Shown: positions 11,446-62,122, counted from the stretch's first letter. The stretch: 64,000 nt of DNA from an uncultured bacterium (GCA_964616725.1 CAZTRW010000001.1:9465-73464); one strand, 5' to 3'. The notes: a model not told the origin generated them from the sequence alone. Numbers and translations are program-made.

Positions 11446-11535
11446 GGGGTGGATTCCGGGCGGGATATTGGTCAACTCTTGCCTTTTTGTGTTGCAATCA
11501 AAGATAGTAATCCCCATTTACCGCAGAATGAGAGT

Positions 11536-12456
11536 ATGAGACGTAGGCGTTCTATTCCCTGGATTCATCGTTGGTCTCGACCAATTATGGCAGCGATCGC
11601 CACTTTAGGGGCGATCGAAACTGCCTTTTTAACTTGGGCAGAGTTGGCAGGACAAGTAGAAGCTATCTGTCCCACCACTGGCTGTAAACAGGTGTTAGGA
11701 AGTCCCTATGCCATGGTGTTTGGTCAGCCTCTTACCCTGTTTGGCTGTTTAGGCTATACCGCTATGGTGATGCTGGCGATCGCACCCTTATTCCTCAATC
11801 AGGATGAGCAAAAAGAACGACGACTCACCGTAGAGCAATGGACCCAATTTCTCCTCTTTACCACCAGTACCGTCATGGTAGTAGGCAGCGCCTATCTTGT
11901 CTACCTGATGGCCTTTAAAATCGAGGCCTTCTGCCCCTATTGCCTAATTTCTGCCTGCTTGTCCCTCAGTTTATTCGTCCTATCCATCATTGGCCATCCC
12001 TGGGAAGATATCGGACAACTCGCCTTTACCGGCATCACCGTAGGAATGGTTACCCTAGTCGCTACTCTAGGAGTCTATGGTAGTGTCAACAATGCCACTA
12101 ATAATGCCGCCACTCCCCCAGGAACTCCCCCTCTAGTAACCACCCCCTCTGGGCCCGCTGAAATCGCCTTAGCCGAGCATCTCAAGCAAATTGGGGCGAA
12201 AGAATATGGAGCCTATTGGTGTCCCCATTGCCATGAGCAAAAGCAGTTATTTGGCAAAGAAGCGGCTGATCTGATTAACTATGTTGAGTGTGCTGCCGAT
12301 GGGGTAAACTCTCAGATGGCTCAATGCCAGGCCGCAGGAGTGCAAGCCTTTCCCACTTGGGAGATTAAGGGGCAACTTCACGCCGGAACTAAGTCCCTGA
12401 ACGAATTAGCTGATTTATCCGGTTATCAAGGCCCCCGTAATTTCCGACCACAGTGA
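11536..12456 (+). CDS. VKOR-thioredoxin fusion (cyanobacterial disulfide bond formation enzyme)
   Basis: Starts MRRRRSIPWIHRWSR. VKOR cysteines (CPTTGC, FCPYC), VLGSPYA, C-terminal WCPHC thioredoxin domain. Confidence 0.9.
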   Translation: MRRRRSIPWIHRWSRPIMAAIATLGAIETAFLTWAELAGQVEAICPTTGCKQVLGSPYAMVFGQPLTLFGCLGYTAMVMLAIAPLFLNQDEQKERRLTVEQWTQFLLFTTSTVMVVGSAYLVYLMAFKIEAFCPYCLISACLSLSLFVLSIIGHPWEDIGQLAFTGITVGMVTLVATLGVYGSVNNATNNAATPPGTPPLVTTPSGPAEIALAEHLKQIGAKEYGAYWCPHCHEQKQLFGKEAADLINYVECAADGVNSQMAQCQAAGVQAFPTWEIKGQLHAGTKSLNELADLSGYQGPRNFRPQ

Positions 12457-12562
12457 TGGGGATTGCTAGGATTGCTCTCTATGCAAATACCCTTAACTCT
12501 TTCTCCCTGGTCAAGCTAGACTCGCATTTTCCCCCAGGGGGAGTTTTTACCCCAAAGACACA

Positions 12563-12583
12563 TTCATGCCGGACGTAGTCCGA
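12563..12583 (+). repeat. 21-nt hairpin element, copy 1
   Basis: TTCATGCCGGACGTAGTCCGA followed by AA; interrupts CAAAGACACA|AAGGACACTAAG. Confidence 0.8.
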
Positions 12584-12614
12584 AAGGACACTAAGTTTTT
12601 TCTTAAGTACCTGA

Positions 12615-14789
12615 TTGGTAATACTACCGCCCTTGCCTGTGAGCCATATCATTGATTCTTTTTGGACTCAACTGACTCGCCGTTTTTCTAATCGCCATCG
12701 AGTCATTTTTACAGCGTCTGGTATCACTTTAGTCATTCTGGCTCTACGTTCTTTGAGTCTATTCCAATCCCTGGAATTACTAGCCTTTGATGCTTTTATC
12801 CGTCTGCGTCCTCAGTTACCCAAGGATCACCGGATTGTGATTATTGGTATTGATGAGCCTGATCTGCAAAAGTTAGGTTCTCAGATTCCCGATCGCACCC
12901 TAGCGGCTCTCTTGCAAAAAATCCATCAAGGTCAACCGAGTGTGATTGGTTTGGATTTGTACCGGGATCTCCCGATCAATCCTGGTCATGAACAATTACA
13001 AGCCGTGATGAAACAATTACCGAATTTGATCGGTATAGAGCGCATTGAAGATCAAATTTCGCCTCGCGTCCCTCCCCCTCCAGTGTTAGATCCGAAAACT
13101 CAAGTGGGGTTTAATAATGTGGTTCTTGATGTCGATAGTAAGGTGCGCCGAGGATTGCTGTATCTACACGCCGATCAGGTTTTGCACAGAAGTTTTGCTT
13201 TACAAATTGCCCTTCAATACCTAGAACCGTCACAGATACAAGAAAATCCCGCACCGGTTAATCCTCAATACTTGCAGCTAGGAAAAGGGGTTTTTTATCC
13301 CTTTCAACCCCATGATGGCGGTTATGTAAAAGCCGATAATAAAGGGTATCAATTTTTAGCTGATTTTCGTGGCCCGCGGAATACATTTACCACGGTTTCG
13401 ATTTCTGATGTCTTGGAGAATAAAGTAAGTCAGGAGTTATTTCGCGATCGCATCGTCTTAATCGGCTTAACAGCCGTGAGTCTCAAAGATTTTGTGGAAA
13501 TTCCCTACAGTCACCCAGAAAAAGTACCAGGAGTAGAAGCGCAAGCCAATTTGATTAGCTTTATTATCGATGTCGCACAGGGACAACAAACCTTAATCAG
13601 AAGTTTACCCGATCTGCTGGAAGGGCTATGGATTTTTGCTTGGTCTGGTTTGGGAACGGTGTTGGCGTGGAAATTTCGAGTTCCCTATCAGTTTCTGCTG
13701 GTGTCTATATCAGCAATGGCATTGCTCATTACTATAAGCTATATGCTGTTTGTTGATCGCTGGTGGTTTCCCGTGATTCCTCCTGTGGCGGGGTTTGGTG
13801 GTGCTGCGGTGATGATTTTAGCTCATTTTGCCTATCAAGAAGGGGAACTCAAGCGATCCACAGAGTTTCTGCAAGGAATTATTAACACCATTGCTGACCC
13901 CATTTTTGTCAAGGATCAAAACCATCGCTGGATTGTGCTCAATCAAGCCTATGCTCACTTGGTTGGTTATCCTCTTCAGGTGCTGATCGAAAAAACGGAA
14001 TATGAATTGTTTTCCCAAGCCGAAGCAGAGCGGTTTTGGCAGCAAGATGAGCAGATTTTTATTACCCACCAAACGACAGAGCAGGAGGAAGTGTTTACTG
14101 ATGCAGGCGGCATTCGACGAGTAATCGCGACGAAAAGATCCCTCCATCGAGACTCTGGAGGGAATTTGTTCTTGGTGGGGGTGATCCGAGATATTACGCA
14201 GCAAAAGGAACGGGAAGCGGAGTTACAGCGGTTGGCGGAAGAGTTGAAACGACATAATGCGGAACTGCGCCTTTCTGAGGATCAGATGCGTCATCTGGCG
14301 AATCATGATGCGCTGACGGGTTTGGCAAACCGGAAGTTGTTTGAGGAAAAACTCCAAGAGGCTTTGGTGTCTGCTCGCGCTCATGAGAAGATGCTGGCAA
14401 CGTTTTTTCTGGATTTGGATGGCTTTAAGCAAATTAATGATTCCTTGGGCCATGATATGGGGGATGTGGTGATTAAAGAAGTGGCTCAACGACTCAAGCA
14501 TTCTTTGCGGGGGACAGATACGGTGGCTCGATTGGGAGGGGACGAGTTTACCGTAATTTTACCGGAAATTCCGAGTGAATCTGTGGCGATTCGAGTGGCG
14601 GAAAAAATTATTGCGGCAGTGACTCAGCCTCTGATAATTGGCGATCGCCAACTTCATATTACTCTGAGCTTAGGGATTAGTCTTTATCCCGATCACGGGG
14701 AAACCCTGGAAACTCTCGTTAAATCAGCCGATCAGGCCATGTATCAAGCGAAAATTGCCGGTAAAAATCGCTATCTTCTGGCTTCTTGA
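12615..14789 (+). CDS. CHASE2-TM-PAS-GGDEF diguanylate cyclase
   Basis: CHASE2 motifs (IVIIGIDE, IGLDLYRDLP, GFNNV..D.D..VRR, PGVEAQAN), three TM segments, a PAS domain, intact GGDEF with RGTD I-site. Start codon uncertain. Confidence 0.92.
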   Translation: MVILPPLPVSHIIDSFWTQLTRRFSNRHRVIFTASGITLVILALRSLSLFQSLELLAFDAFIRLRPQLPKDHRIVIIGIDEPDLQKLGSQIPDRTLAALLQKIHQGQPSVIGLDLYRDLPINPGHEQLQAVMKQLPNLIGIERIEDQISPRVPPPPVLDPKTQVGFNNVVLDVDSKVRRGLLYLHADQVLHRSFALQIALQYLEPSQIQENPAPVNPQYLQLGKGVFYPFQPHDGGYVKADNKGYQFLADFRGPRNTFTTVSISDVLENKVSQELFRDRIVLIGLTAVSLKDFVEIPYSHPEKVPGVEAQANLISFIIDVAQGQQTLIRSLPDLLEGLWIFAWSGLGTVLAWKFRVPYQFLLVSISAMALLITISYMLFVDRWWFPVIPPVAGFGGAAVMILAHFAYQEGELKRSTEFLQGIINTIADPIFVKDQNHRWIVLNQAYAHLVGYPLQVLIEKTEYELFSQAEAERFWQQDEQIFITHQTTEQEEVFTDAGGIRRVIATKRSLHRDSGGNLFLVGVIRDITQQKEREAELQRLAEELKRHNAELRLSEDQMRHLANHDALTGLANRKLFEEKLQEALVSARAHEKMLATFFLDLDGFKQINDSLGHDMGDVVIKEVAQRLKHSLRGTDTVARLGGDEFTVILPEIPSESVAIRVAEKIIAAVTQPLIIGDRQLHITLSLGISLYPDHGETLETLVKSADQAMYQAKIAGKNRYLLAS

Positions 14790-15069
14790 GATCAACTCAG
14801 TTTCTTGCCGAAAGTTTTAACAATTCTTTATAATTTAGCTCAATTTTCTCCGGTTTAACCCGATAAAGTGAGAATAAAGGAGAAGAATTCCGTAGATTCT
14901 CAGAGTTTTCTGCGCAGAACTCCCGGTTTTTCAGAAAGACAATACAAAATCTTCTGAAAAAAAAAACCGTATATGCACGGAATTTTGCCGAAGGGATGAT
15001 TGACAATCAGTTTTAAATTCGGTAAAACTGCCAGTATAATTGAAAGTAAGTCTCGAATAGGCTAGGGTT

Positions 15070-15303
15070 ATGAGTATGGAAACCGTCTTGGCATTAGAAA
15101 ATATGACCGTTATGTTGGCAAGTGGTTTGTTGGCGATCGCCAGTTTCTCCTCACCTAGCTGGGGAGTAACCAATACGCACGGTAACATTCACGAGATGGC
15201 TGAAGTTCATCAAGCCGTCCCTCCTTTGGCTGTGTTGCTGAAAGGCTATGAACCTCCTGATAATGGGAAACCTGACCATACAGGAGATACAGGGGGGCGT
15301 TAA
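15070..15303 (+). CDS. Small putative secreted peptide precursor with C-terminal PPDNGKP..GGR motif
   Basis: 77 aa; hydrophobic N-region (VMLASGLLAIASFSSPSWG) and Pro/Gly-rich tail ending in Arg; co-oriented 280 nt behind the CHASE2 gene. Confidence 0.55.
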   Translation: MSMETVLALENMTVMLASGLLAIASFSSPSWGVTNTHGNIHEMAEVHQAVPPLAVLLKGYEPPDNGKPDHTGDTGGR

Positions 15304-15654
15304 CTTAATCTAATCTGTTATCCTCACGGGTTAAGGTAAATCAGGGATACAAAAAATTGCCCGATCAAGGGTTTATATTAATTAAAATTACCATATACTC
15401 ATCAAGCTAAGGCAGACTCTATCTAGCCTGTGGGCTGGTGTGCCCTAGAGAAATATCAAGTTTCTTTACGGTTTTGCGTGGGAGAAGTAACTTATCCTTA
15501 AGGATAAAGTGTAGTTGTTCTGAGTTGACAAGAATTAGATTCAACCTTTCTATAGGATAGCACGGGAAATACAGAAGTGAAAACCCAGGGCGATCGCTTC
15601 CTCAGTAACACCAATTCGGAAAATCTCGCAAGACGCTTTTGCTTCTCAGTTCAA

Positions 15655-15888
15655 CATAATAGCGCTTCGCGCTGTATCTCCCTGATTCTCCCGATTTTAA
15701 TCCTATAGAAATGCGGTGGTGTCTTTTGTCTGAGGTTTTGCCCCTACTACCAGTGCTATAATTGATGTTCTTCTGTCCGTAGCTCTGAAGTTGATTGATC
15801 CTGTTCATGTCGGACGAAGTCCGAAAACCTTTAAAAAACTGGTTGACTCATTGTTGTACTGTCCATCATAACAGCGCTAAGCGCTGTA
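15655..15888 (+). repeat. Two copies of a 22-nt palindromic unit CATAAYAGCGCTNNGCGCTGTA
   Basis: Copies at 15655-15676 and 15867-15888; 3 mismatches between them. Confidence 0.7.
15804..15824 (+). repeat. 21-nt hairpin element, copy 2
   Basis: TTCATGTCGGACGAAGTCCGA followed by AA. Confidence 0.8.
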
Positions 15889-16020
15889 GTTCCCCTGCTG
15901 GGGCAGTGAAAAAAAGGGAATGATCGGCTTTTGATCCTGGCGATCGCCACTCTAGACCCTTCTCCATAGATCTGGGACAATCTAAAGAATGCCAAACGCT
16001 AATTCTGATGGTTTCCCAGA

Positions 16021-16968
16021 TTGATCATGAAAATTGCACAAGATATTACCCAATTAGTGGGGCGCACTCCCTTGGTTCGCTTAAACCGAATACCCCCCGC
16101 AGAGGGATGTGTGGCTGAAATTGTGGTAAAGCTCGAAAGTATGAATCCAGCCTCTTCCGTTAAAGATCGGATTGGGGTCAATATGATTAATGCGGCTGAA
16201 CGACAAGGGTTGATTTCTCCCGATAAGACGGTTTTGGTGGAACCCACTTCTGGAAATACGGGGATTGCTTTGGCGATGGTTGCCGCAGCGCGAGGGTATC
16301 GGTTAATTTTGCTGATGCCAGAAACTATGAGTGCGGAACGACGGGCAATGTTAAAAGCCTATGGTGCAGAGTTAATTCTCACACCCGGTTCGGAAGGGAT
16401 GGGGGGATGTATTCGGCGAGCACTGGAAGTGGTGGATACTACGCCTAATGCTTATATGCTACAGCAGTTTCAAAATCCGGCGAATCCTCAGATTCACCGA
16501 CAAACTACAGCCCAGGAAATTTGGTTAGATACTGATGGCATGGTGGATATGGTGGTTGCTGGTGTGGGGACTGGAGGCACGATTACGGGGGTGGCAGAAG
16601 TGCTGAAGCAGAAGAAGGGGACGGTACAGATGATTGCGGTGGAGCCGAAAACCTCGCCGGTGCTATCGGGGGGACAACCGGGACCTCATAAAATTCAAGG
16701 GATTGGTGCAGGATTTATTCCGGAAGTGTTGAGAGTGGATTTAATTGATGAGATTATTACGGTTGGGGACGAGGAGGCGATCGCCTTTAGTCGCCGTTTA
16801 GCCAGGGAGGAAGGGTTGCTATCAGGAATCTCTACGGGGGCGGCTTTGTGTGCAGCGATTCAGGTGGCACAACGGGAAGAAAACCGCGATCGCCTGATTG
16901 TGATGATTCAGCCTAGTTTTGGCGAGCGATACTTGAGTACCCCCTTGTTTCAAGACTTAGAGGTTTGA
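16021..16968 (+). CDS. cysK: Cysteine synthase A
   Basis: NPASSVKDR (PLP lysine), [31 protein letters not shown]. Confidence 0.97.
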
Positions 16969-17072
16969 GGCACAAGGACGGGGGAGGTTCTCCAGTTTCT
17001 CTGGTCTACTACGCCCCTTTTCTCTGTGATATCCTAACCTAGGGAGGTAGTGTTTCCTGATTAGTTACTGAT

Positions 17073-17753
17073 ATGGTAGATGTAAATCCTTATGAAATTT
17101 TGGGGGTAAAACCAACCGCGACGCAAGCACAAATCCATCAGGCTTATCGCCGTTTGGTGAAACGCTATCATCCTGATGTTAATCCCAATCTCGGCGATCG
17201 CGAACAGATTGTACGTCTCAATCTTGCCTATGAAACCCTCAGCGATCCTGACGGTCGTCGGGTTTGTGATCGCCAATTTTATGATCCCCCTGCCTCCCAA
17301 CCTCGGCAAAAACAGAGATCAGCTCGTCGTTCAACCCCTCTAGATCCGGATCAACACTGGCAGCAATGGCTCAAACAAGTGTATTATCCGGTGAGCAGTA
17401 CCCTCGGTCAAATGATTGATTCGATTGAAACGGAAATTGAAGCTCTTTCCGCCGATCCCTTTGATGATGAATTACTGGCTAATTTCCAAACCTATCTCAC
17501 TACCTGTCACTTTCAACTAGAGCAGATTCAAAAACGCTTTCGTTCTCTACCCAATCCTAATCCAGTCGCTAGTATTGCTGCCCATCTCTATTATTGTCTC
17601 AATCAAGTGAGCGATGGTTTAGAAGAATTTTATTGGTTTACCCAAAACTATGACGATCATTATTTACATACAGGTTTAGAACTATTTCGGATTGCCGATG
17701 GACTTCGCCAAGAGGCTCAAGAGGCGTTGCAAGAAGTTTATGCGATCGCCTAA
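17073..17753 (+). CDS. J-domain (DnaJ type III) protein
   Basis: NPYEILGV...YRRLVKRYHPD...LNLAYETLSDP. Confidence 0.87.
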   Translation: MVDVNPYEILGVKPTATQAQIHQAYRRLVKRYHPDVNPNLGDREQIVRLNLAYETLSDPDGRRVCDRQFYDPPASQPRQKQRSARRSTPLDPDQHWQQWLKQVYYPVSSTLGQMIDSIETEIEALSADPFDDELLANFQTYLTTCHFQLEQIQKRFRSLPNPNPVASIAAHLYYCLNQVSDGLEEFYWFTQNYDDHYLHTGLELFRIADGLRQEAQEALQEVYAIA

Positions 17754-17777
17754 TTGCCTGAGATTAACCTGCCTCTG

Positions 17778-17996
17778 CTACTGTTGTTGTGGTGGCGGAG
17801 AAGGGTCTGGAGATGGGGGGGTTTTCTGGGAAGCATGAACCAGCCAACCAATTACCAACACGAGGATTGCGCCTAAAATATATCCTAAACCAGCAAAACC
17901 AAAGCGATCGGCAGCAAAGCTAATCCATTGTCCAAAACCTTGCTTGGGGGGGGGATCGTTCATATCGTTCATAAAGTCTTCCTCATTAGCTTTCAA
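17778..17996 (-). CDS. Small membrane protein, hypothetical
   Basis: One TM segment and a Pro-rich tail; overlaps the stop of the upstream gene. Confidence 0.45.
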   Translation of the reverse strand: MKANEEDFMNDMNDPPPKQGFGQWISFAADRFGFAGLGYILGAILVLVIGWLVHASQKTPPSPDPSPPPQQQ

Positions 17997-18582
17997 ATAA
18001 TTCTGAGAGTTCTTCAGTGCTCGTGCCTAGAATGCGAGCTAATTTAGAGATTTCATTATCGGTAAATCCGTCTCGAATTTGGATCAGTTCTTTGGGCGAT
18101 CGCCCAATAATCCGAGCGATCGCGCCCACTTGTTCATCCGTAATTTCCTTACCTCCATAAATATCTCGCAAATCTTGAGGCGAGAGTTTATAGGAGTCAC
18201 AAAAACGGACAAATTCTTTATCACTAATATCGAGTTGTTCTTGGCGATCGCGCAACATAAACATAATTGCCCGTGAGCCATGATCGGGACGCTTAAACCG
18301 TTCTACATACTGCTTGTAGATCTCGTTAACTTGGGCAGGAGTTCCCCCTACATGCTTAACCAAGTCTGTACAAGCCATTCTCAAGGCCTTAGTTAAGGTT
18401 TTATTGTATTGAGAGAGTTTTTCATTTTCCTGGCGCAACTTTTCTGACTGATTAATCGTATCTACAATACTGGCAGCAAATTCAGGAGTACAGACTCCCA
18501 CATCAGCATCCTCGTAGGAAATGGGGATATAGGATCGATTCGGATTAAATTGCAAGCGTAAAGACGGGTTATTTGGTTCCAT
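17986..18582 (-). CDS. Conserved hypothetical protein, coiled coil plus possible XRE-like HTH repeats
   Basis: Start set at MEPNN (18582). C-terminus has two HTH-like repeats (ITDEQVGAIARIIGRSPKEL / FTDNEISKLARILGTSTEEL). Confidence 0.65.
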   Translation of the reverse strand: MEPNNPSLRLQFNPNRSYIPISYEDADVGVCTPEFAASIVDTINQSEKLRQENEKLSQYNKTLTKALRMACTDLVKHVGGTPAQVNEIYKQYVERFKRPDHGSRAIMFMLRDRQEQLDISDKEFVRFCDSYKLSPQDLRDIYGGKEITDEQVGAIARIIGRSPKELIQIRDGFTDNEISKLARILGTSTEELSELFES

Positions 18583-18603
18583 AAAGTTTGATGTAGTAGC
18601 GCT

Positions 18604-18624
18604 TTCCTGTCGGATGAAGTCCGA
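18604..18624 (+). repeat. 21-nt hairpin element, copy 3
   Basis: TTCCTGTCGGATGAAGTCCGA followed by AA; 2 mismatches to copy 2. Confidence 0.8.
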
Positions 18625-18684
18625 AACCCAGGGCAGTTCAGGCGGCAATGACTGAACCTGGGTCTATTGTAGTTCACCTTGGGG

Positions 18685-19356
18685 CTAAATTCGATTGGAG
18701 GCTAAACGGTCGGCGATGCGAGTGGTTTCGGGTAGGCGATACTGGGGACTACAGGCTAACACATAGGCGATCGCTGTGGCTAGACTGATGCGATGACCAA
18801 CAGAGACATAGAGAGGGTTTACCCCAGTACGAGTTCGCAACACCGCACCAATGGTTTCCTCTCTGTCTTGGAGAGGTTGCCAACTGCCTCGCTCTGGTGC
18901 TAAGTTCTTGTAAGTACCGATAAACCGAGATTTCGCCACTCCAATGGTGGGACAATCGAGGAGGACTCCCAAGTGACAGGCTAACCCAAAACGGCGAGGG
19001 TGAGCGAGTCCTTGCCCATCGCACAGGATTAAATCCGGGAGGGTTTTGAGGGAGCGCAAGGCGGCTAAAATGGGGGGGACTTCCCGAAAGGAGAGAAATC
19101 CGGGAATATAGGGAAAGGCTGTGGGATAAATGGCGATCGCTGTTTCTTCTAGCACCAAGCTAGGAAAACTGAGGACGGCTACGGCGGCTCTGGCGGTTTT
19201 ACCTTGATTTTCAAAGCCCACATCCACTCCTGCCACCCACTCAACTTTCCCTACTGTATCCCAGACAATTACCTGGTTTCGCCCTTGCTCTTGTATTAAT
19301 TGTGCCTCTGATAAGGAGGTGGGCCATGGAGAAGGATCGGGAAGGGTGATCATCAT
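18685..19356 (-). CDS. nfi: Endonuclease V
   Basis: [52 protein letters not shown]. Confidence 0.95.
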
Positions 19357-23464: not shown

Positions 23465-23520
23465 GGGGGACTCCTGTAAGTTGAAGTGTAGGTTTTATCA
23501 TAATTAGGAGGATGAGGAGC

Positions 23521-23576
23521 GCGATCGCCTAGCGACTCCGTAGGAGTATCGCCCAGGGACTCCGTAGGAGTATCGC
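23521..23576 (+). repeat. HIP1-anchored 24-nt hairpin element, 2 tandem units (intergenic)
   Basis: GCGATCGC + CTAGCGACTCCGTAGGAGTATCGC + CCAGGGACTCCGTAGGAGTATCGC. Confidence 0.85.
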
Positions 23577-23642
23577 CCAGCTATTTTCCTCGCCATTGTA
23601 CTGGATAAAACTTCTGTTTCAAGTTATTTTTTTGTCATGGTT

Positions 23643-26491: not shown

Positions 26492-26517
26492 CAAAGACAC
26501 AGAGGACACCAAGTTTT
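26492..26517 (+). repeat. CAAAGACACA-GAGGACACCAAG short dispersed repeat (uninterrupted copy)
   Basis: 24/26 identical to 12553-12562 joined to 12584-12599 once the 21-nt element is removed. Confidence 0.65.
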
Positions 26518-29563: not shown

Positions 29564-30394
29564 TTAGACATCTTCGTGGGCGAAGCGACGATAGAGGAAA
29601 TCGAGGGCGTAGTTTCGCAATTCGTAGAAACGAGGGTCTTCCATAATGCGAGCGCGATCGCGCGGTCGAGGGAAAGGAATATCAATAATATCACCAATGG
29701 TGGCGGATGGCCCATTGGTCATCATCACCAGGCGATCGGCTAAAAACAACGCCTCATCGATATCATGGGTAATCATCAGCACTGTGCAGCGATTGTTTTG
29801 CCAAATAGTGAGCAATTCTTCCTGGAGTTCTTCTTTGGTAATGGCATCGAGAGCGCCAAATGGCTCGTCTAATAAGAGCATACGAGGACTCATGGCTAAG
29901 GCGCGGGCGATCGCCACCCGTTGCTTCATCCCCCCAGACAACTCATGGGGGCGCTTATGAGCCGCGTCACTCAAGCCAACCATGGCCAAATATTCCTGGG
30001 CAATGGCCAACTTTTCCCGTTGAGATTTGCGCTTAAAGGTGGCGTGAACCCCTAGCCACACATTTTCTAGAGCCGTTTTCCAGGGGAGTAGGGAATAATT
30101 TTGGAACACCATCATCCGATCCGGTCCCGGTTGGGTAATGGGGCGATCGCCGAGATAAATGGCTCCTAAAGTGGGTTGGATAAACCCCGCCACCATATTT
30201 AGTAAGGTGGATTTGCCACAGCCTGAATGGCCAATGAGGGTAATAAATTCTCCTTCCTGTACTGCCAGATCCAGATTTTCAATCACAGGATAAGGGCCAT
30301 TTGGGGTGGGATAAATCTTAGAGATATTCTGAACTGACAGCAAGGGCTGGGTAAGCATGGAATGAGATAGAGGAATGGAAGAAAGAGGGGGCAT
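29564..30394 (-). CDS. nrtD: Nitrate/nitrite ABC transporter ATP-binding subunit D
   Basis: GHSGCGKST, PGPDRMMVFQ, LSGGMKQR, MTNGPSATIG; last gene of the operon. Confidence 0.9.
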   Translation of the reverse strand: MPPLSSIPLSHSMLTQPLLSVQNISKIYPTPNGPYPVIENLDLAVQEGEFITLIGHSGCGKSTLLNMVAGFIQPTLGAIYLGDRPITQPGPDRMMVFQNYSLLPWKTALENVWLGVHATFKRKSQREKLAIAQEYLAMVGLSDAAHKRPHELSGGMKQRVAIARALAMSPRMLLLDEPFGALDAITKEELQEELLTIWQNNRCTVLMITHDIDEALFLADRLVMMTNGPSATIGDIIDIPFPRPRDRARIMEDPRFYELRNYALDFLYRRFAHEDV

Positions 30395-30429: not shown

Positions 30430-32430
30430 TTAAGCGGCTTGTCTGGAACCATCGAGGTTCACTTCTTCAATACGCAGATCCCGCTTGATCGGCAATTGGT
30501 ACAAGTAGTCTAAGGGGTTATTAGGATCAAATAGGGTCTGATCAAACACAGAGAAGGGTTTAGGAGTTGGCTCTACGTCTGGCAATCCCAAGTCTCGTGC
30601 TGCCCGGCTGAATAGATCCAAACGGCGAATCCGTTGCAAAGCATCTACCCAGTTTCTGGGGAAGGGAGTGATGCCCCAACGAGCCAGTTGGTTCATGATC
30701 CAGAGCGCTTCTCCTCGGTTGGGACAGTTGGAGCGATCAAAGAAAAATCGGTTGATAGAGGGCAACTTTTCTGATTCTCCCCCTTTTTCTCGCAGGTAAG
30801 GCTCCAGGAAACCCGGAGCGGTATAGACGCGATCGCTACCCACATATTCCGGCAGGCAAAGGAGATCGAGGATTTCTGGGCGATGACGGGGATCGTCACA
30901 ATACTCACAGGCTTCTAAGAGAGCTTTCAGCAGAGCCAGGTGGATATCTGGGTGCTCGTTGGCATAGTCTTCCCGCATTCCGAATACTTTTTCGGGATGA
31001 CTCGGCCACAGGTCTAAGCTAGTCGCGATCGCAAAGCCTAAATCCTCATGGACAGCACGAGAGTTCCACGGCTCACCCACACAGTACCCTTCAATGTTAC
31101 CCGCCTTGAGGTTAGAGACCATTTGGGGAGGGGAAATTACACTGAGGTTGAGATCGCCATCCGGATCAATGCCCCCACAGGCCAACCAATGGCGCAACAG
31201 GAGATTATGCATCGAAGCTGGATGAACCACGCCCAAGGTGTGGGGTCGATCCGGCGTAGCCAAGAAAGCCGCTTTGAGGTCTGCTAGGGTTCTTACGCCC
31301 TGTTGATAGAGTTTTTTGCTCAGGGTAATCGCATTGCCGCCGCGACTGAGAACCAGAGCAGTAACAATGCTGACAGGAGGTTGCTTGCCCAACCCTAGAG
31401 TGAGGGCAATGGGCATCCCCGCCACCATTTGGGCCGCATCAAGGCGGCGGTTGATTACCCCCTCAGCGATCGCCGCCCAACTTGGTTCTCGACTGAGAGT
31501 AACCTGTTCGAGACCCTGTTTTTTGAAAAACCCTTTTTCTTGCGCCACAATGAGAGGGGCACAATCCGTAAGCGGAATAAAACCTATTTCCAGCGGCTTT
31601 TTCAGTCCAGAGGTCACCACCGCCGCCGCCGGGATAGCTTGTCGGCGTTTCGCCCGTTTTTGTTGGTTGAGAAAATAGATAATATCGTTGCGTAGTCCGT
31701 AGTAACTCGGATGATTGACCACTTCTAGGCGTTGGCGAGGGCGGGGGAGGGGAACATCGAGGATTCTACCCACCCGCGATTCTGGCCCATTGGTGAGCAT
31801 GACAATCCGATCGCTTAACAATAAAGCCTCATCCACATCATGGGTAACCATGATACAGGTAGCATGGCTTTCTTCGCAGATTTGCATCAGGCGCTCTTGC
31901 AAGCTAGCGCGCGTGAGCGCATCCAGAGCACCAAAAGGTTCGTCTAAAAGTAACAATTTGGGGCGAATCGCTAGAGCGCGGGCGATCGCCACCCGTTGCT
32001 TCATCCCCCCAGACAACTCATGCGGGAACTTATGCTTAGCAGGGTGCAAGCCTACCCAGTCAATATGTTGGTTAATCACCTCACGCCGCTCACCCGTCGG
32101 CAGATGTTGCATCACCGCATCCACCGCTAAAGCCACATTTTGAAACACCGTTTTCCACGGGAGCAAAGAATAATTTTGGAAAACCACCATCCGATCCGGC
32201 CCCGGTCGCACCACCTCTTTCCCGTCCAAAACCACACCGCCGCTAGAGGCACGATCTAAACCCGCCACAATCCGTAATAAAGTAGACTTACCACAGCCAG
32301 AATGACCGATTAACGAGATAAATTCACCTTTCTCGATAGAGAAATTAATGTTTTTCAGAGCCACATAGGGATCCCCATTCGGTAAAGGAAACACCTTATC
32401 TAAGTGGTCAATCTCAACAAAGTTGTTCAT
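30430..32430 (-). CDS. nrtC: Nitrate/nitrite ABC transporter ATP-binding subunit C with NrtA-like C-terminal regulatory domain
   Basis: ABC domain followed by GFIPLTDCAPL...CVGEPWN. Confidence 0.9.
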   Translation of the reverse strand: MNNFVEIDHLDKVFPLPNGDPYVALKNINFSIEKGEFISLIGHSGCGKSTLLRIVAGLDRASSGGVVLDGKEVVRPGPDRMVVFQNYSLLPWKTVFQNVALAVDAVMQHLPTGERREVINQHIDWVGLHPAKHKFPHELSGGMKQRVAIARALAIRPKLLLLDEPFGALDALTRASLQERLMQICEESHATCIMVTHDVDEALLLSDRIVMLTNGPESRVGRILDVPLPRPRQRLEVVNHPSYYGLRNDIIYFLNQQKRAKRRQAIPAAAVVTSGLKKPLEIGFIPLTDCAPLIVAQEKGFFKKQGLEQVTLSREPSWAAIAEGVINRRLDAAQMVAGMPIALTLGLGKQPPVSIVTALVLSRGGNAITLSKKLYQQGVRTLADLKAAFLATPDRPHTLGVVHPASMHNLLLRHWLACGGIDPDGDLNLSVISPPQMVSNLKAGNIEGYCVGEPWNSRAVHEDLGFAIATSLDLWPSHPEKVFGMREDYANEHPDIHLALLKALLEACEYCDDPRHRPEILDLLCLPEYVGSDRVYTAPGFLEPYLREKGGESEKLPSINRFFFDRSNCPNRGEALWIMNQLARWGITPFPRNWVDALQRIRRLDLFSRAARDLGLPDVEPTPKPFSVFDQTLFDPNNPLDYLYQLPIKRDLRIEEVNLDGSRQAA

Positions 32431-34960: not shown

Positions 34961-36166
34961 CTAAACGTCCCCAACGGGTGGCATTGTTTCGTGATGATGG
35001 TGATGAGGATCGTGGTGATGATGGTGATGATGGTGGGAGTGCGTAGTAGTTGCTATTCTCGCAGAATTCACCACTAAAGCCTCTTGAGAAAACAGATTTT
35101 CTAAGTGAGGATTTGCCCAATCTGCTGCCATTTTGAGAAACTCTGGATGATCGTTAGCACATTCCATTTGGATATAGGTAATTTCTGGATGCTGGCGCTG
35201 CAAAGCTTCAATAATATGAGCAACATCTAACAGGGTTTCGTGGTTTTCTGTGACAAACCCAATCGGCATAAACAGAATCGCCTTAGCGCCGAGTTTAATC
35301 AGGTTTTCGGCGGCGAGTTTAACAGGGGGTTGAGTCCATTCGATCAAAGGAGTATCATGGTTGAGCCAGCCGATGGAAATGAGGGGATATTTGTCAATTA
35401 ATTCTTCTCGAACTGATTCATAGAGGCTTTGGCTTTCGGTGATTCCAGAGGTAAATCCTTTGGCTTTGTGAGGACAACCGTGGTTCATGAGCACAATTGC
35501 GGTTTGAGAAGGTAAGCAGGAATCTTGCAATTCATGGGCGATTTTTGCTTCTACTAATTGAGCCATCAGCTTAATGTAAGCCGGTTGGTTATAGAAGGAA
35601 GGAATATAACGCTCTCCAGTTACCCAATGGGGAGTCGATTTTTCTTGAGCGAGGGCTTGATTGACTTGCTCGATCGCAATGCCACTAGTGAAAATAGAGT
35701 CAACCACTAATAGGGGATAGATCAGGAGTTTGTCGAAGCCTTCGGCTTTAATTTCCGCTAATACTTGATGGGGCAGGAAGGGAGCACAAAAGTTAAAGGC
35801 TTTGAATACTTTAACGCGATCGCCCCATGTTTGCTGTAAATACTGCTCAATCCCTGCGCGCTGCTTCTCAAAGATGGCATTATGGGGAGAGATAAAATGA
35901 CCATGCTGGTGATTCCACTCGTGAAAGTCAAATATTGCCAGCAGTTTGGCAAGAGGGGGATAAATCCAGGCGGGCACCGGCGCAAATTTGGCAGTCAGCA
36001 GGTTGAGTGCTTGTTCATTATAGTTGGCAAAGTCATCATAACTTTCTACTTCACCATATCCCATGAGCAGGACGGCAACGCGAGAGGCTTGGCGATCGCG
36101 AAGCGACTCCCCAGGAGTATCGTGAAGCGACTGTTGTTGAGACTGTTTTTCAGAAGTGGTAACCAC
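34961..36166 (-). CDS. Ferrochelatase-like class II chelatase with poly-His C-terminus
   Basis: AVLLMGYG, FNFCAP, LIYPL, MNHGCP, GWLNH, PIGFVTENHETLLD; tail HSHHHHHHHDPHHHHH; no CAB domain. Confidence 0.78.
   Translation of the reverse strand: MVTTSEKQSQQQSLHDTPGESLRDRQASRVAVLLMGYGEVESYDDFANYNEQALNLLTAKFAPVPAWIYPPLAKLLAIFDFHEWNHQHGHFISPHNAIFEKQRAGIEQYLQQTWGDRVKVFKAFNFCAPFLPHQVLAEIKAEGFDKLLIYPLLVVDSIFTSGIAIEQVNQALAQEKSTPHWVTGERYIPSFYNQPAYIKLMAQLVEAKIAHELQDSCLPSQTAIVLMNHGCPHKAKGFTSGITESQSLYESVREELIDKYPLISIGWLNHDTPLIEWTQPPVKLAAENLIKLGAKAILFMPIGFVTENHETLLDVAHIIEALQRQHPEITYIQMECANDHPEFLKMAADWANPHLENLFSQEALVVNSARIATTTHSHHHHHHHHDPHHHHHETMPPVGDV
36092..36123 (+). repeat. HIP1-anchored 24-nt element inside the chelatase gene
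   Basis: GCGATCGC + GAAGCGACTCCCCAGGAGTATCGT; adds 8 in-frame residues on the minus strand. Confidence 0.8.
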
Positions 36167-42214: not shown

Positions 42215-43777
42215 ATGTCCTATCCCTTGTCCCTGTTGATATTTACTGTTGTTGCTGGTGGGATAATCATGCCGCCGCCAGCGGTGAGTCCTTCCCTCTC
42301 CCTTACTGCTCTGGCGGTGAAGGGAAAACCAGCCAATGCCCCCCACTTTCTCCTCGCACAGAGCCACCCAGAAAATGCCTGCGCCGAGGGACTCGCCCTA
42401 GCTCAAGCCGCAGTGAAAGAAGGAGAGCAGGCAACCACTGCCCAACAATGGACTCAGATTGCCCAAAAATGGCAACAAGCATCGGACTTAATGGTCAAAG
42501 TCTCCCCAGAAAATAGCTGTTACGCCCAGGCTCAAGAACGGATCGAATTCTATCGCCGCAATAGTGAAATTGCCCTAGAGGAAGCGCAAAAAAAAGCCTC
42601 TATTCCCCTCCCTAATCTCGCCATAGGTGCAGAAGGGAAAGAAGTTCAGCAACTTCAGCAACGGCTCAAAGAACTGGGTTATTTTTCCGAAACTGTCAAT
42701 GGCATTTATGGAGAAACCACGGCTACCGCTGTCACAAATTTTCAAAGAGCTACGGGACTAGCAGCAGATGGTCAAGTCGGACAAAACACTTGGGATAAAT
42801 TACAATCAGCTAGTCCTATCATCTCTTCTCCTTCCCCCACTCCGCCAGAGAGTTTAGCCGCCAAACCCAGACAGAGAAGGAATCAAAAGAAGCGTTCTTT
42901 TACCGAGGGGTTAGTGGGTTGGGTGATGATGGGTTTAGGGGGATTAACCGTTTTAGGGGGGACAGTTTTTATTCTCCTGAAGCTCTTAAATCGGACGGAA
43001 GATGAGGAAGACTTAGAAGAGGAAGAACCAGAAGCGTTGGTGACTTCAGATTTGCCAGAGAATGTAGCATCTCAAGCCTTGGTAGCTTCTGGGGATGGAG
43101 AATCTGTCGAATCATCAACGAATGGTCATCCAGAAGTTGTTTTGGGGGGGGCGAACTCTCAGTCAGATCTAGAGCCAAGTTCTGGTACGGTGGAGTTGCC
43201 AAAAGAGATGCCTTCTCCAGAGAATCCTGTCTCTTCTGGGGAGTTGGTGCCGGTGAATGAAACGACTCGTCTGCCAAAGATGGGTATTATTGATGATTTG
43301 ATTAAGGATTTACAAAGTGCCGATCATCAAAAACGCCGTCAGGCAATTTGGGAGTTGGGACAACGGGGAAATTCTTTGGCAGTACAACCTTTGTTGAATT
43401 TATTGTTGGATTCTGATTCGGGACAGCGGACGTTAATTTTGTCGGCGCTTTCGGAAATTGGGGTGAAAACGATAAAGCCGATGAATCGGGCTTTATCGTT
43501 ATCGTTGCAGGATGATAATCCAGAAGTGAGAAAAAATGCGATTCGGGATTTTACGCGGATGTATGAGTTGATTGCGACGGTGAGTCATATGATGTGTCAT
43601 GCGGTCGATGATCCGGATCGGGAGGTGCAAGAGGTGGCAGAGTGGGCGGTGCGCCAGTTGCGACGGATTAGTGCTGCGTCAAATTTGGTTAAACTGAAAG
43701 AGGATCGGTCTTCGCGATCGCGCAGCGACTCCGCCGGAGGAGCACCTGATGAGTTTTTAGAAGACGAAGAGAGTTGA
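42215..43777 (+). CDS. Membrane protein: peptidoglycan-binding domain + TM + HEAT/PBS-lyase repeats
   Basis: VQQLQQRLKELGY..NGIYGETT..AVTNFQR..GL.ADGQVGQNTW; TM at about aa 235-258; RRQAIWELG, VRKNAIRD. Confidence 0.8.
   Translation: MSYPLSLLIFTVVAGGIIMPPPAVSPSLSLTALAVKGKPANAPHFLLAQSHPENACAEGLALAQAAVKEGEQATTAQQWTQIAQKWQQASDLMVKVSPENSCYAQAQERIEFYRRNSEIALEEAQKKASIPLPNLAIGAEGKEVQQLQQRLKELGYFSETVNGIYGETTATAVTNFQRATGLAADGQVGQNTWDKLQSASPIISSPSPTPPESLAAKPRQRRNQKKRSFTEGLVGWVMMGLGGLTVLGGTVFILLKLLNRTEDEEDLEEEEPEALVTSDLPENVASQALVASGDGESVESSTNGHPEVVLGGANSQSDLEPSSGTVELPKEMPSPENPVSSGELVPVNETTRLPKMGIIDDLIKDLQSADHQKRRQAIWELGQRGNSLAVQPLLNLLLDSDSGQRTLILSALSEIGVKTIKPMNRALSLSLQDDNPEVRKNAIRDFTRMYELIATVSHMMCHAVDDPDREVQEVAEWAVRQLRRISAASNLVKLKEDRSSRSRSDSAGGAPDEFLEDEES
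43714..43745 (+). repeat. HIP1-anchored 24-nt element (diverged) in the 3' end of the PG-binding/HEAT gene
   Basis: GCGATCGC + GCAGCGACTCCGCCGGAGGAGCAC, encoding RSDSAGGA. Confidence 0.65.
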
Positions 43778-60417: not shown

Positions 60418-60449
60418 GCGATCGCGCAGCGACGGAGCAGGAGTATTGC
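60418..60449 (+). repeat. HIP1-anchored 24-nt element (intergenic)
   Basis: GCGATCGC + GCAGCGACGGAGCAGGAGTATTGC; 1 mismatch to unit 3 at 61560. Confidence 0.8.
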
Positions 60450-61351: not shown

Positions 61352-62122
61352 ATGCGTTTACCCTTACCTTTGGTTAATTCTAGCGATCGCCCCAAAAACC
61401 ACATCGCTGAGGTGATTGAAACAGCCACCACGGAGTTTTTAGCCGAATGTCTGGAACCCGAAAGCCTGAGTTTTCCCATCATGCCTGCTTTCGGAACTTT
61501 TGTGCGATCGCGCAGCGACTCCCCAGGAGTATCGCGCAGCGACTCCCCAGGAGTATCGCGCAGCGACGGAGCAGGAGTATCGCGTAGTGACTCCCTAGGA
61601 GTATCACTCTCTGAAGAACCTGACTCTCCCTATTGGGTATATGCGGTAGTATATCACGCCACTACCACCCCCATTGATTCCATCCATCGCGCCAGAGCAT
61701 TAGGATTATCCTTAGAACAACTGCGGGAAGAACAACCCCAAATCTTCGCCATGCTCAAAACAGAATTTAGAGCCGCCATTGTCGGATTTGAAACCCTCGA
61801 AAATCTTGGTACTTCTACCCCTCGTTCCCGCATTTACCAGCACTTACCCCCTCGTCCCCCTCAAATTCACCAGGCAATTTATCAATGTACTCCTGAAGAA
61901 GTCCTCCGATTTACTCATCAAGTAGATTTTATCCGCATTCTCCTAGAAATTCCCGGTACTCCTGTCGATGCCTTGATTGCCGCCACCTTGAGATCCATTT
62001 ATCAATTTAGACCCACAGAACGATCTTGGCTCGTACAAGCGGGACGACATTTAAGCTTATTAGTCAAAGATGATTATGACCGGCTACGCTATATTTTGAG
62101 TCAGGTTTATCTGGCCAATTAA
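61352..62122 (+). CDS. HAS-barrel domain protein carrying a 32-aa repeat insertion
   Basis: HIAEVIET.TTEFLAEC, PIDSIHRARALG, EQPQIFAMLKTEF, KDDYDRLR. Confidence 0.82.
   Translation: MRLPLPLVNSSDRPKNHIAEVIETATTEFLAECLEPESLSFPIMPAFGTFVRSRSDSPGVSRSDSPGVSRSDGAGVSRSDSLGVSLSEEPDSPYWVYAVVYHATTTPIDSIHRARALGLSLEQLREEQPQIFAMLKTEFRAAIVGFETLENLGTSTPRSRIYQHLPPRPPQIHQAIYQCTPEEVLRFTHQVDFIRILLEIPGTPVDALIAATLRSIYQFRPTERSWLVQAGRHLSLLVKDDYDRLRYILSQVYLAN
61504..61607 (+). repeat. HIP1 plus four tandem 24-nt elements, in frame
   Basis: Units at 61512, 61536, 61560 and 61584 encode RSDSPGVS, RSDSPGVS, RSDGAGVS, RSDSLGVS. Confidence 0.92.

Follow-up and report, generated by a model that had tools for sequence, protein, structure and literature searches.

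A 21-nt hairpin unit in DNA of a Roseofilum relative as a probable SDR-like insertion module of low copy number

Is a 21-nt hairpin that recurs in one orientation within a few kilobases a mobile repeat or a regulatory site? This question is raised by a 64,000-nt stretch of DNA from an uncultured bacterium (GCA_964616725.1 CAZTRW010000001.1:9465-73464), referred to here as the window, which contains three copies of such a unit. A first-pass annotation of the window had suggested a mobile hairpin similar to the small dispersed repeats (SDRs) of cyanobacteria and unrelated to the repeat HIP1, with a palindromic operator as the alternative. The former suggestion is supported by an insertion of the unit into a conserved AAA-ATPase gene of Roseofilum, by tandem and nested copies, and by the absence of the unit from the corresponding VKOR-CHASE2 loci of Roseofilum. 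Judged from sequence comparison, the unit is probably an SDR-like, non-autonomous insertion module of 21 nt that occurs at low copy number.

The unit at filled and empty sites

The unit TTCMTGYCGGAYGWAGTCCGA, followed by AA, is located at positions 12563, 15804 and 18604, in each case on the + strand, as the first-pass annotation had described. Exactly three matches occur in the 64 kb when up to 3 mismatches are allowed; dinucleotide-preserving shuffles gave a mean of 0.01, and none of 100 reached three. In this family, TTCATG forms the 5' tail and TCGGAC/GTCCGA a 6-bp stem, which encloses a loop of 3 variable nucleotides. In the window this core is always accompanied by a TTCMTG head and the AA tail, and a search of the window for the palindromic core alone (YCGGAYNNNGTCCGA, 1 mismatch allowed) revealed no further full copy. 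Copy 1 (12563..12583, +; TTCATGCCGGACGTAGTCCGA) has a C as its first stem base and hence only 5 pairs. Copy 2 (15804..15824, +; TTCATGTCGGACGAAGTCCGA) harbors a perfect 6-bp stem with a GAA loop and is identical to Roseofilum copies in loci L002, L021 and L033, and copy 3 (18604..18624, +; TTCCTGTCGGATGAAGTCCGA) contains a T-G mismatch at one stem position. All three continue with AA(A). Every copy is predicted to form, as single-stranded DNA, a stem of 5-6 bp with a loop of 3-5 nt at -4 to -5 kcal/mol. The unit has no coding capacity and encodes nothing.

Copy 1 splits a sequence that is also present uninterrupted in the window. Its flanks, CAAAGACACA and AAGGACACTAAGTTTT, form the filled site (12553..12599, +), and the uninterrupted paralogue (26492..26517, +; CAAAGACACAGAGGACACCAAGTTTT) is positioned 18 nt past the stop codon of a short-chain dehydrogenase gene. 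Deletion of 12563-12583 yields CAAAGACACAAAGGACACTAAGTTTT, which agrees with 26492-26517 at 24 of 26 positions, as the first-pass annotation had noted. This match has a blastn-short E value of 9.8e-5 (130-nt query against the window), and a rough calculation puts the chance of such a match (one 26-mer, no more than 2 mismatches, 128 kb) at about 1e-7. Thus the homology between 12553 and 26492 is real, and the indel corresponds exactly to the 21-nt unit. Weaker similarity extends about 15 nt beyond the 26-nt match on both sides, and no other copy of the paralogue 26-mer was found across the 311 kb of cyanobacterial DNA compared.

A second site of this kind lies in Roseofilum, inside a gene for a 664-residue AAA-ATPase of a contractile-injection-like cluster (L033:1956-1978 and L021:2352-2374). 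The N-termini of the two locus translations were aligned with 34 database homologues. The site is filled in R. acuticapitatum (L033), in R. halophilum (L021) and in a metagenome contig encoding a 96% identical protein (L162/P0241), all of which read ...LQTRI-SDFVRHE-NDK.... All 33 other aligned homologues show a gap of exactly 7 residues; among them are R. casamattae P0242 and P0243, which are closest (76% identity). The codons TCG GAC TTC GTC CGA CAT GAA spell the 21-nt unit in exact reverse complement, which places it in the gene in frame and antisense. The DNA of R. casamattae (L161) reads ...CAG GCG ATC / GCC AAA... at this site. The aligned sequences form an orthologous pair of filled and empty sites, and parsimony points to a gain in the lineage of R. 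acuticapitatum and R. halophilum. Neither the window pair nor the AAA-ATPase insertion shows a target-site duplication. As far as sequence comparison can tell, these sites show that the unit has been gained as an exact 21-nt block without such a duplication. The empty AAA-ATPase allele coincides with a HIP1 site (L161:3076-3090, GGCGATCGCC). As the filled alleles lack HIP1, no link to HIP1 can be claimed.

The absence of the unit at corresponding positions was also examined at the locus of copy 1. The window and the Roseofilum loci L035-L037 share the gene order DAHP synthase, DUF3464, sulfotransferase, RuvA, BtpA, hypothetical protein, VKOR, CHASE2 and a small open reading frame (ORF), and the CHASE2-PAS-GGDEF protein of the window is nearest to Roseofilum proteins, with 73% identity. 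Gene order and protein similarity together indicate that the source organism, a hot-spring cyanobacterium, is a genus-level relative of Roseofilum (Desertifilales). A comparison of orthologous intergenic regions had been recommended in the first-pass annotation; in the syntenic BtpA-VKOR-CHASE2 loci L035-L037, no copy of the unit was found in 22 kb. Near the position of copy 1 these loci carry a different hairpin, CAGGATATGCCATCCTG. The divergence of this region (73% amino acid identity in the gene) prevents an exact placement of the empty site in the spacer, so the comparison shows the absence of the unit only. At the L008 site, which was compared with shikimate kinase orthologues, the upstream neighbor is different in every relative, and no clean empty site is readable.

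Tandem and nested copies and the distribution of the unit

In R. halophilum the unit also occurs beside itself and within other repeats. Locus L008 contains the tandem pair TTCATGTCGGACGCAGTCCGA-TTCATGTCGGACGCAGTCCGA-AA with a period of 21 nt. The window indel, this tandem period and the 7-codon insertion in the AAA-ATPase gene are three independent measures that give a unit length of 21 nt. The 42-nt unitig formed by the two tandem units of L008 has a k-mer depth of 9.5x (X4) and about 6x (X5) that of its single-copy flanks in mat-metagenome contigs, which indicates more tandem junctions than the assembly shows. This suggests collapsed arrays, with the extra junctions belonging either to a longer L008 array or to further arrays elsewhere. 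In L002, L003, L008, L009 and L028 the unit is located directly 3' of another mini-hairpin, (A/T)TCCGCTTCGCGGACAT(G/T). This partner (TCCGCTTCGCGGACATG / TCCGCTTCGCGGA, 19-21 nt) is itself tandem in L028, and some of these five copies adjoin repeat units of about 70 nt that contain GGGAGCGTCTCGCTCCC and are likewise tandem in L028. The five partner-joined loci have no exact counterpart in the representative genomes of R. acuticapitatum or UBA2566, and neither the partner nor the 70-nt unit has a similar sequence in the window. Composite arrays that combine the GGGAGCG..CGCTCCC unit of about 70 nt, the TCCGCTTCGCGGACATG unit and the 21-mer are found in intergenic regions of R. halophilum at L008:4129-4172, L028:4400-4735 and L003:1156-1300. 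Taken together, the loci show landing sites of the unit in intergenic DNA, in other repeats, beside itself and in frame in a coding sequence.

The distribution of the unit was analyzed with the pattern TTCMTGYCGGAYNNNGTCCGAAA in one genome per species for 185,579 species, a collection that does not include the window's own genome. The scan revealed 34 loci, about half of which are scattered single matches in unrelated phyla, as chance predicts. Cyanobacterial matches are restricted to Roseofilum species, the metagenome-assembled genome (MAG) UBA2566 and Hormoscilla; no Nostocales representative genome matched the exact pattern. Exact loci number seven in R. halophilum (on 7 contigs), two in R. 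acuticapitatum and two in UBA2566, with further ones in several Hormoscilla MAGs, and these copy numbers are lower bounds because only exact matches were counted. R. casamattae, if it is among the representatives, gave no exact match. The flanks of one UBA2566 locus closely match those of L031 and L017, which are loci of R. halophilum and R. acuticapitatum. In total, 11 independent contexts were found in Desertifilales-type genomes; 8 of them belong to Roseofilum and 3 to the window. When 273 kb of related DNA were scanned with up to 4 substitutions allowed, one copy with a single mismatch (L023:5812) was added and none that was more diverged. This absence of diverged copies indicates that the family is tight.

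The Hormoscilla matches represent one locus family, in which the unit precedes the start codon (ATG) of a nifU-like gene by 8 nt and is part of a duplicated segment. They were therefore counted as one event, which may have arisen by chance. The duplicated segment, found in L034, L001, L014, L023, L025, L027 and L005, consists of the 3' end of one gene, the unit and the 5' end of the nifU-like gene. In L034 the copies at 321-879 and 1766-2324 are 559 nt long and 99.6% identical; a 140-nt version occurs elsewhere, and one duplicate leads to a truncated nifU-like ORF. Among the matches listed in a metagenome scan, most belong to one conserved gut-metagenome gene (TTCCTGCCGGACCAAGTCCGAA), and none has the cyanobacterial form or a HIP1-rich context. 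A scan of viral contigs for the unit gave no match.

Neighboring genes and alternative explanations

The window consists of HIP1-rich cyanobacterial DNA with about 47% G+C, and the only near-identical sequence came from contigs of hot-spring metagenome runs. In the source metagenome runs, the contigs that cover 12000-19000 represent the same genome only, at about 7x depth, and no presence/absence polymorphism is readable from them. Copy 1 is located between the gene for VKOR (11449-12456, +) and that for the CHASE2-PAS-GGDEF protein (12639-14789, +). A terminator-like hairpin with a T-run (TTTCCCCCAGGGGGAG TTTTT, 12528-12548) lies just 3' of VKOR and directly before the flank that is split by copy 1. 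Copy 2 is positioned within a non-coding stretch of 717 nt (15304-16020), about 200 nt 5' of the CysK-like gene (16021-16968, +), which is followed by a gene for a DnaJ-domain protein (17073-17753, +). The synteny with Roseofilum stops in this stretch, which contains three mini-hairpins; in Roseofilum the shared genes are followed by PsbU and an FHA-cyclase gene, whereas CysK and DnaJ follow in the window. Copy 3 lies between the genes for a weakly helix-turn-helix (HTH)-like protein (17986-18582, -) and endonuclease V (18685-19356, -) and is antisense to both.

Two other families of mini-hairpins were observed in the window. Units of a further 21-nt family, ATAAYAGCGCTNNGCGCTGTA, bracket copy 2 at 15656-15676 and 15868-15888 (+), a number of matches reached by none of 100 shuffles. 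Variants with 2-3 mismatches occur in L002:4334, L009:3158, L011:2248 and L033:3939, and from these matches the family also seems to be common to Roseofilum. A 24-nt hairpin unit (about GCAGCGACTCCCCAGGAGTATCGC) forms tandem repeats that abut HIP1 (GCGATCGC), as though nested within it, at 23497-23605, 36092-36152, 43717-43745, 60421-60449 and 61480-61612. Apart from these short elements, direct repeats of about 80% identity are present at 29708-30131 and 31783-32206, 2075 nt apart in adjacent genes for ABC-transporter ATPases (29564-30394 and 30430-32430). They are ordinary paralogy of an NMT1-type (nitrate/bicarbonate-like) transporter operon.

The operator proposed as the alternative in the first-pass annotation would be the palindrome TCGGAC-N3-GTCCGA, bound by a dimeric transcription factor such as the HTH-like protein of 17986-18582 and controlling the CHASE2-GGDEF, CysK-like and HTH-like genes. 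The 6-3-6 symmetry of the core fits this proposal, and so do several distances to start codons. From copy 1 it is 29 nt to the TTG at 12615, with which the CHASE2 ORF opens, and 53 nt to the GTG at 12639 of the database gene call (716 aa). Copy 3 precedes the ATG of the HTH-like gene (18582) by 21 nt, and these distances are in keeping with those of about 30 and 21 nt given earlier; copy 3 would be inside the ORF if translation started at TTG 18648. In relatives, the nifU-like gene and a PAS-cyclase gene each have a copy 8-9 nt ahead of their ATG, and the low copy number would suit a regulon. Furthermore, 3 of the 11 independent contexts adjoin nucleotide-cyclase signaling genes, but such genes are numerous in filamentous cyanobacteria, so this share is probably a coincidence. 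The three contexts are window position 12563 (CHASE2-GGDEF), L011:3606 (PAS-adenylate/guanylate cyclase) and L008:4129 (GAF-PAS-cyclase). A site for a dimer does not account for the conserved TTCATG tail and the trailing AA, which are asymmetric, nor for the copy that is antisense and in frame inside a coding sequence, the tandem copy and the nested arrays. The unit is missing upstream of the orthologous Roseofilum CHASE2 gene, and no HTH-like homologue was seen among the ORFs inspected beside Roseofilum or Hormoscilla copies. The protein of 17986-18582 matches an HTH family only marginally (HTH_26, E 8e-5; no NCBIfam match), and the copy near this gene is opposite in direction to the two copies that precede + strand genes. 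The neighbors of the unit differ between lineages and are functionally unrelated, comprising diguanylate cyclase, CysK, HTH-like protein and endonuclease V, a D27-like protein, ABC ATPase and TrkH, PfkB and YceD, DUF2887, FtsX and NdhH, and PAS-cyclases. Given these observations, an operator is quite unlikely.

Two further explanations take the hairpin as part of something else. If it acted in the transcript, as a terminator, stabilizer, processing site or mask of a ribosome-binding site, its stability for its size, its orientation in the sense of the flanking genes in 8 of 11 contexts and the location of several copies just upstream of start codons would be understandable. However, the direction of the unit with respect to transcription varies, with 8 sense contexts, 3 antisense ones and 1 that is ambiguous; copy 3, the L008 copy and the coding-sequence copy are antisense. 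No T-run follows the hairpin, no Rfam family was found in 10-30 kb of the window at E values up to 1, and the stems show no compensatory changes while two window copies have weakened stems; a function in RNA is thus very unlikely. The 21-mer might instead be what remains of one end of a larger repeat, for example a miniature inverted-repeat transposable element, an insertion sequence terminus or the Roseofilum composite arrays, and have spread through recombination or decay of these larger elements. This would agree with the 5 of 7 R. halophilum copies that are always joined to the second hairpin, some of them beside the 70-nt units that are tandem in L028, and with the Hormoscilla unit inside a duplicated segment of 140-560 nt. 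Yet the window copies, the coding-sequence insertion, L011 and L015 are solo with boundaries exactly at 21 nt, and the window contains neither a likeness to the partner hairpin or the 70-nt unit nor a recognized transposase, which leaves an origin as a fragment unlikely. Two other candidates were rejected. An upstream ORF would start at the ATG of the unit, from which short ORFs run in copies 1 and 2; copy 3 has CTG instead, and relatives do not preserve the reading frames. Integron-like cassettes, considered for the three direct copies at distances of 3.2 and 2.8 kb, were dismissed because Roseofilum shows VKOR-CHASE2 synteny but lacks the unit there.

Relation to known repeats and possible mechanism

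Elhai et al. in 2008 reportedly described SDR1-SDR8 from Nostoc punctiforme and other heterocyst-forming cyanobacteria as repeats of 21-27 nt. Several of these families are said to form hairpins, with compensatory changes reported for SDR4-6. SDRs and repetitive extragenic palindromic (REP) sequences are usually present in tens to hundreds of copies per genome. The unit shares with SDRs the size class, the hairpin, the precise insertion as a block, the tandem or nested occurrence, and the lack of coding capacity and of a known mobilizer. It differs from them in copy number, which is higher for SDRs, and in its hosts, which are Desertifilales (possibly also Gomontiellales) and not Nostocales. 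SDR5 has been described as a 21-nt sequence (bioRxiv 10.64898/2026.06.24.733823) that is inserted precisely within HIP1 (PMC4390886), and a further paper reports, citing Elhai 2008, that SDR-like repeats were not found outside Nostocaceae (PMC5861425). The unit, unlike SDR5, is not tied to HIP1 and includes an in-frame insertion in a coding sequence. The source genome also carries a HIP1-nested hairpin repeat, as in the Nostoc SDR5 case; this repeat of the window recalls SDR5 but has a length of 24 nt, not 21. The unit would be a new family of the SDR kind and not one of SDR1-8, from which it would differ in sequence, given the absence of the exact pattern from Nostocales representative genomes, and in its hosts.

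Other systems share single properties with the unit. REP sequences mobilized by RAYT proteins (HUH Y1) also combine a short hairpin with an asymmetric 5' tail, are mostly intergenic and non-autonomous, produce no target-site duplication and have a plausible single-stranded DNA mechanism. However, they reach far higher copy numbers and have a much longer stem, with a GTAG head and a palindrome of about 20-40 nt in place of the TTCATG/TTCCTG head and 15-nt palindrome of the unit. No REPIN-type inverted pairs occur in the window or in any locus (311 kb), and no RAYT gene flanked by copies was seen. The subterminal hairpins of IS200/IS605 elements likewise have a short 5' guide-like tail and no target duplication, and the common direction of all window copies is a further likeness. 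These elements have a fixed target of 4-5 nt and two different ends, whereas the unit has a variable 5' flank and a single hairpin, and neither the window nor the ORFs inspected near locus copies revealed TnpA or TnpB. Palindromic operators of dimeric HTH regulators resemble the unit in the 15-bp core of 6-3-6 symmetry and in the location of some copies near starts. They differ from it in that the unit has asymmetric flanks, tandem and coding-sequence copies, and no positional conservation at the orthologous locus.

Several observations weigh against an SDR-like insertion module. The copy number is low, with 3 copies in the window and 2-7 exact ones per representative genome, and the window copies all lie within 6 kb. 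The window pair is paralogous and not orthologous, and a precise deletion of 21 nt could in principle explain it. Between close species the position of the unit is kept in the L011/L017/L031 group and at the Hormoscilla nifU-like locus, although the flanks there are equally conserved. The 5' flanks vary (ACA, CTG, GCT, ATG, ATT, AGG and CCA) and provide no conserved target, unlike those of IS200/IS605. A stem is either unchanged or disrupted by a change in one arm (C in copy 1, T in copy 3, A in L023:5812), and this lack of compensatory changes means that covariation gives no support for a selected structure. Finally, Pfam and NCBIfam scans of 55 window ORFs identified no transposase, HUH/Y1 or reverse-transcriptase family and no mobilizing gene, and the mechanism is inferred in its entirety.

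An SDR-like module of this kind could be copied or moved in trans by a factor that is encoded elsewhere in the genome. The hairpin with its asymmetric 5' tail, the lack of a duplication and the shared orientation in the window together resemble substrates of HUH/Y1 enzymes. The preferred guess is a factor that would recognize the single-stranded hairpin and its tail, as HUH/Y1 proteins do on REP or IS200-type hairpins. The missing GTAG head, the lack of inverted pairs and the lack of a fixed target oppose this guess. An RNA-mediated route, which Elhai et al. are said to have suggested for SDRs, would be equally open. Any particular enzymology of movement is tentative at best. All three window copies are probably passive relics; two of them have uncompensated stem changes, as decaying relics would. 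If the CHASE2-GGDEF, CysK-like and HTH-like genes are affected at all, this would be incidental.

A bolder version, rather unlikely at present, is that the 21-mer is actively mobile and among the smallest mobile units known. It would then be served by a dedicated hairpin-recognizing factor acting in trans, common to Desertifilales and also serving two other families, the 21-nt ACAGCGCT hairpins and the 24-nt hairpins nested in HIP1. If this is true, genes could tolerate these mini-hairpins as short added peptides, their lengths being multiples of three. The SDR mobilizing enzyme could then be sought by phyletic comparison, with a further lineage available in addition to Nostocales.

For the annotation of the window, the three hairpins should not be taken for operators. 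The clean orthologous pair of filled and empty sites in a conserved gene indicates that a protein can be lengthened by 7 residues through such a unit. R. halophilum with its expanded copies and R. casamattae, in which the examined site is empty, may provide a comparative handle on the mobilizing gene. Block-inserting repeats of about 21 nt have so far been described only in heterocyst-forming cyanobacteria, and their movement has remained unexplained since 2008. The unit would represent an unrelated sequence family with the same behavior in a different order, the Desertifilales, and would thus extend the phenomenon beyond Nostocales.

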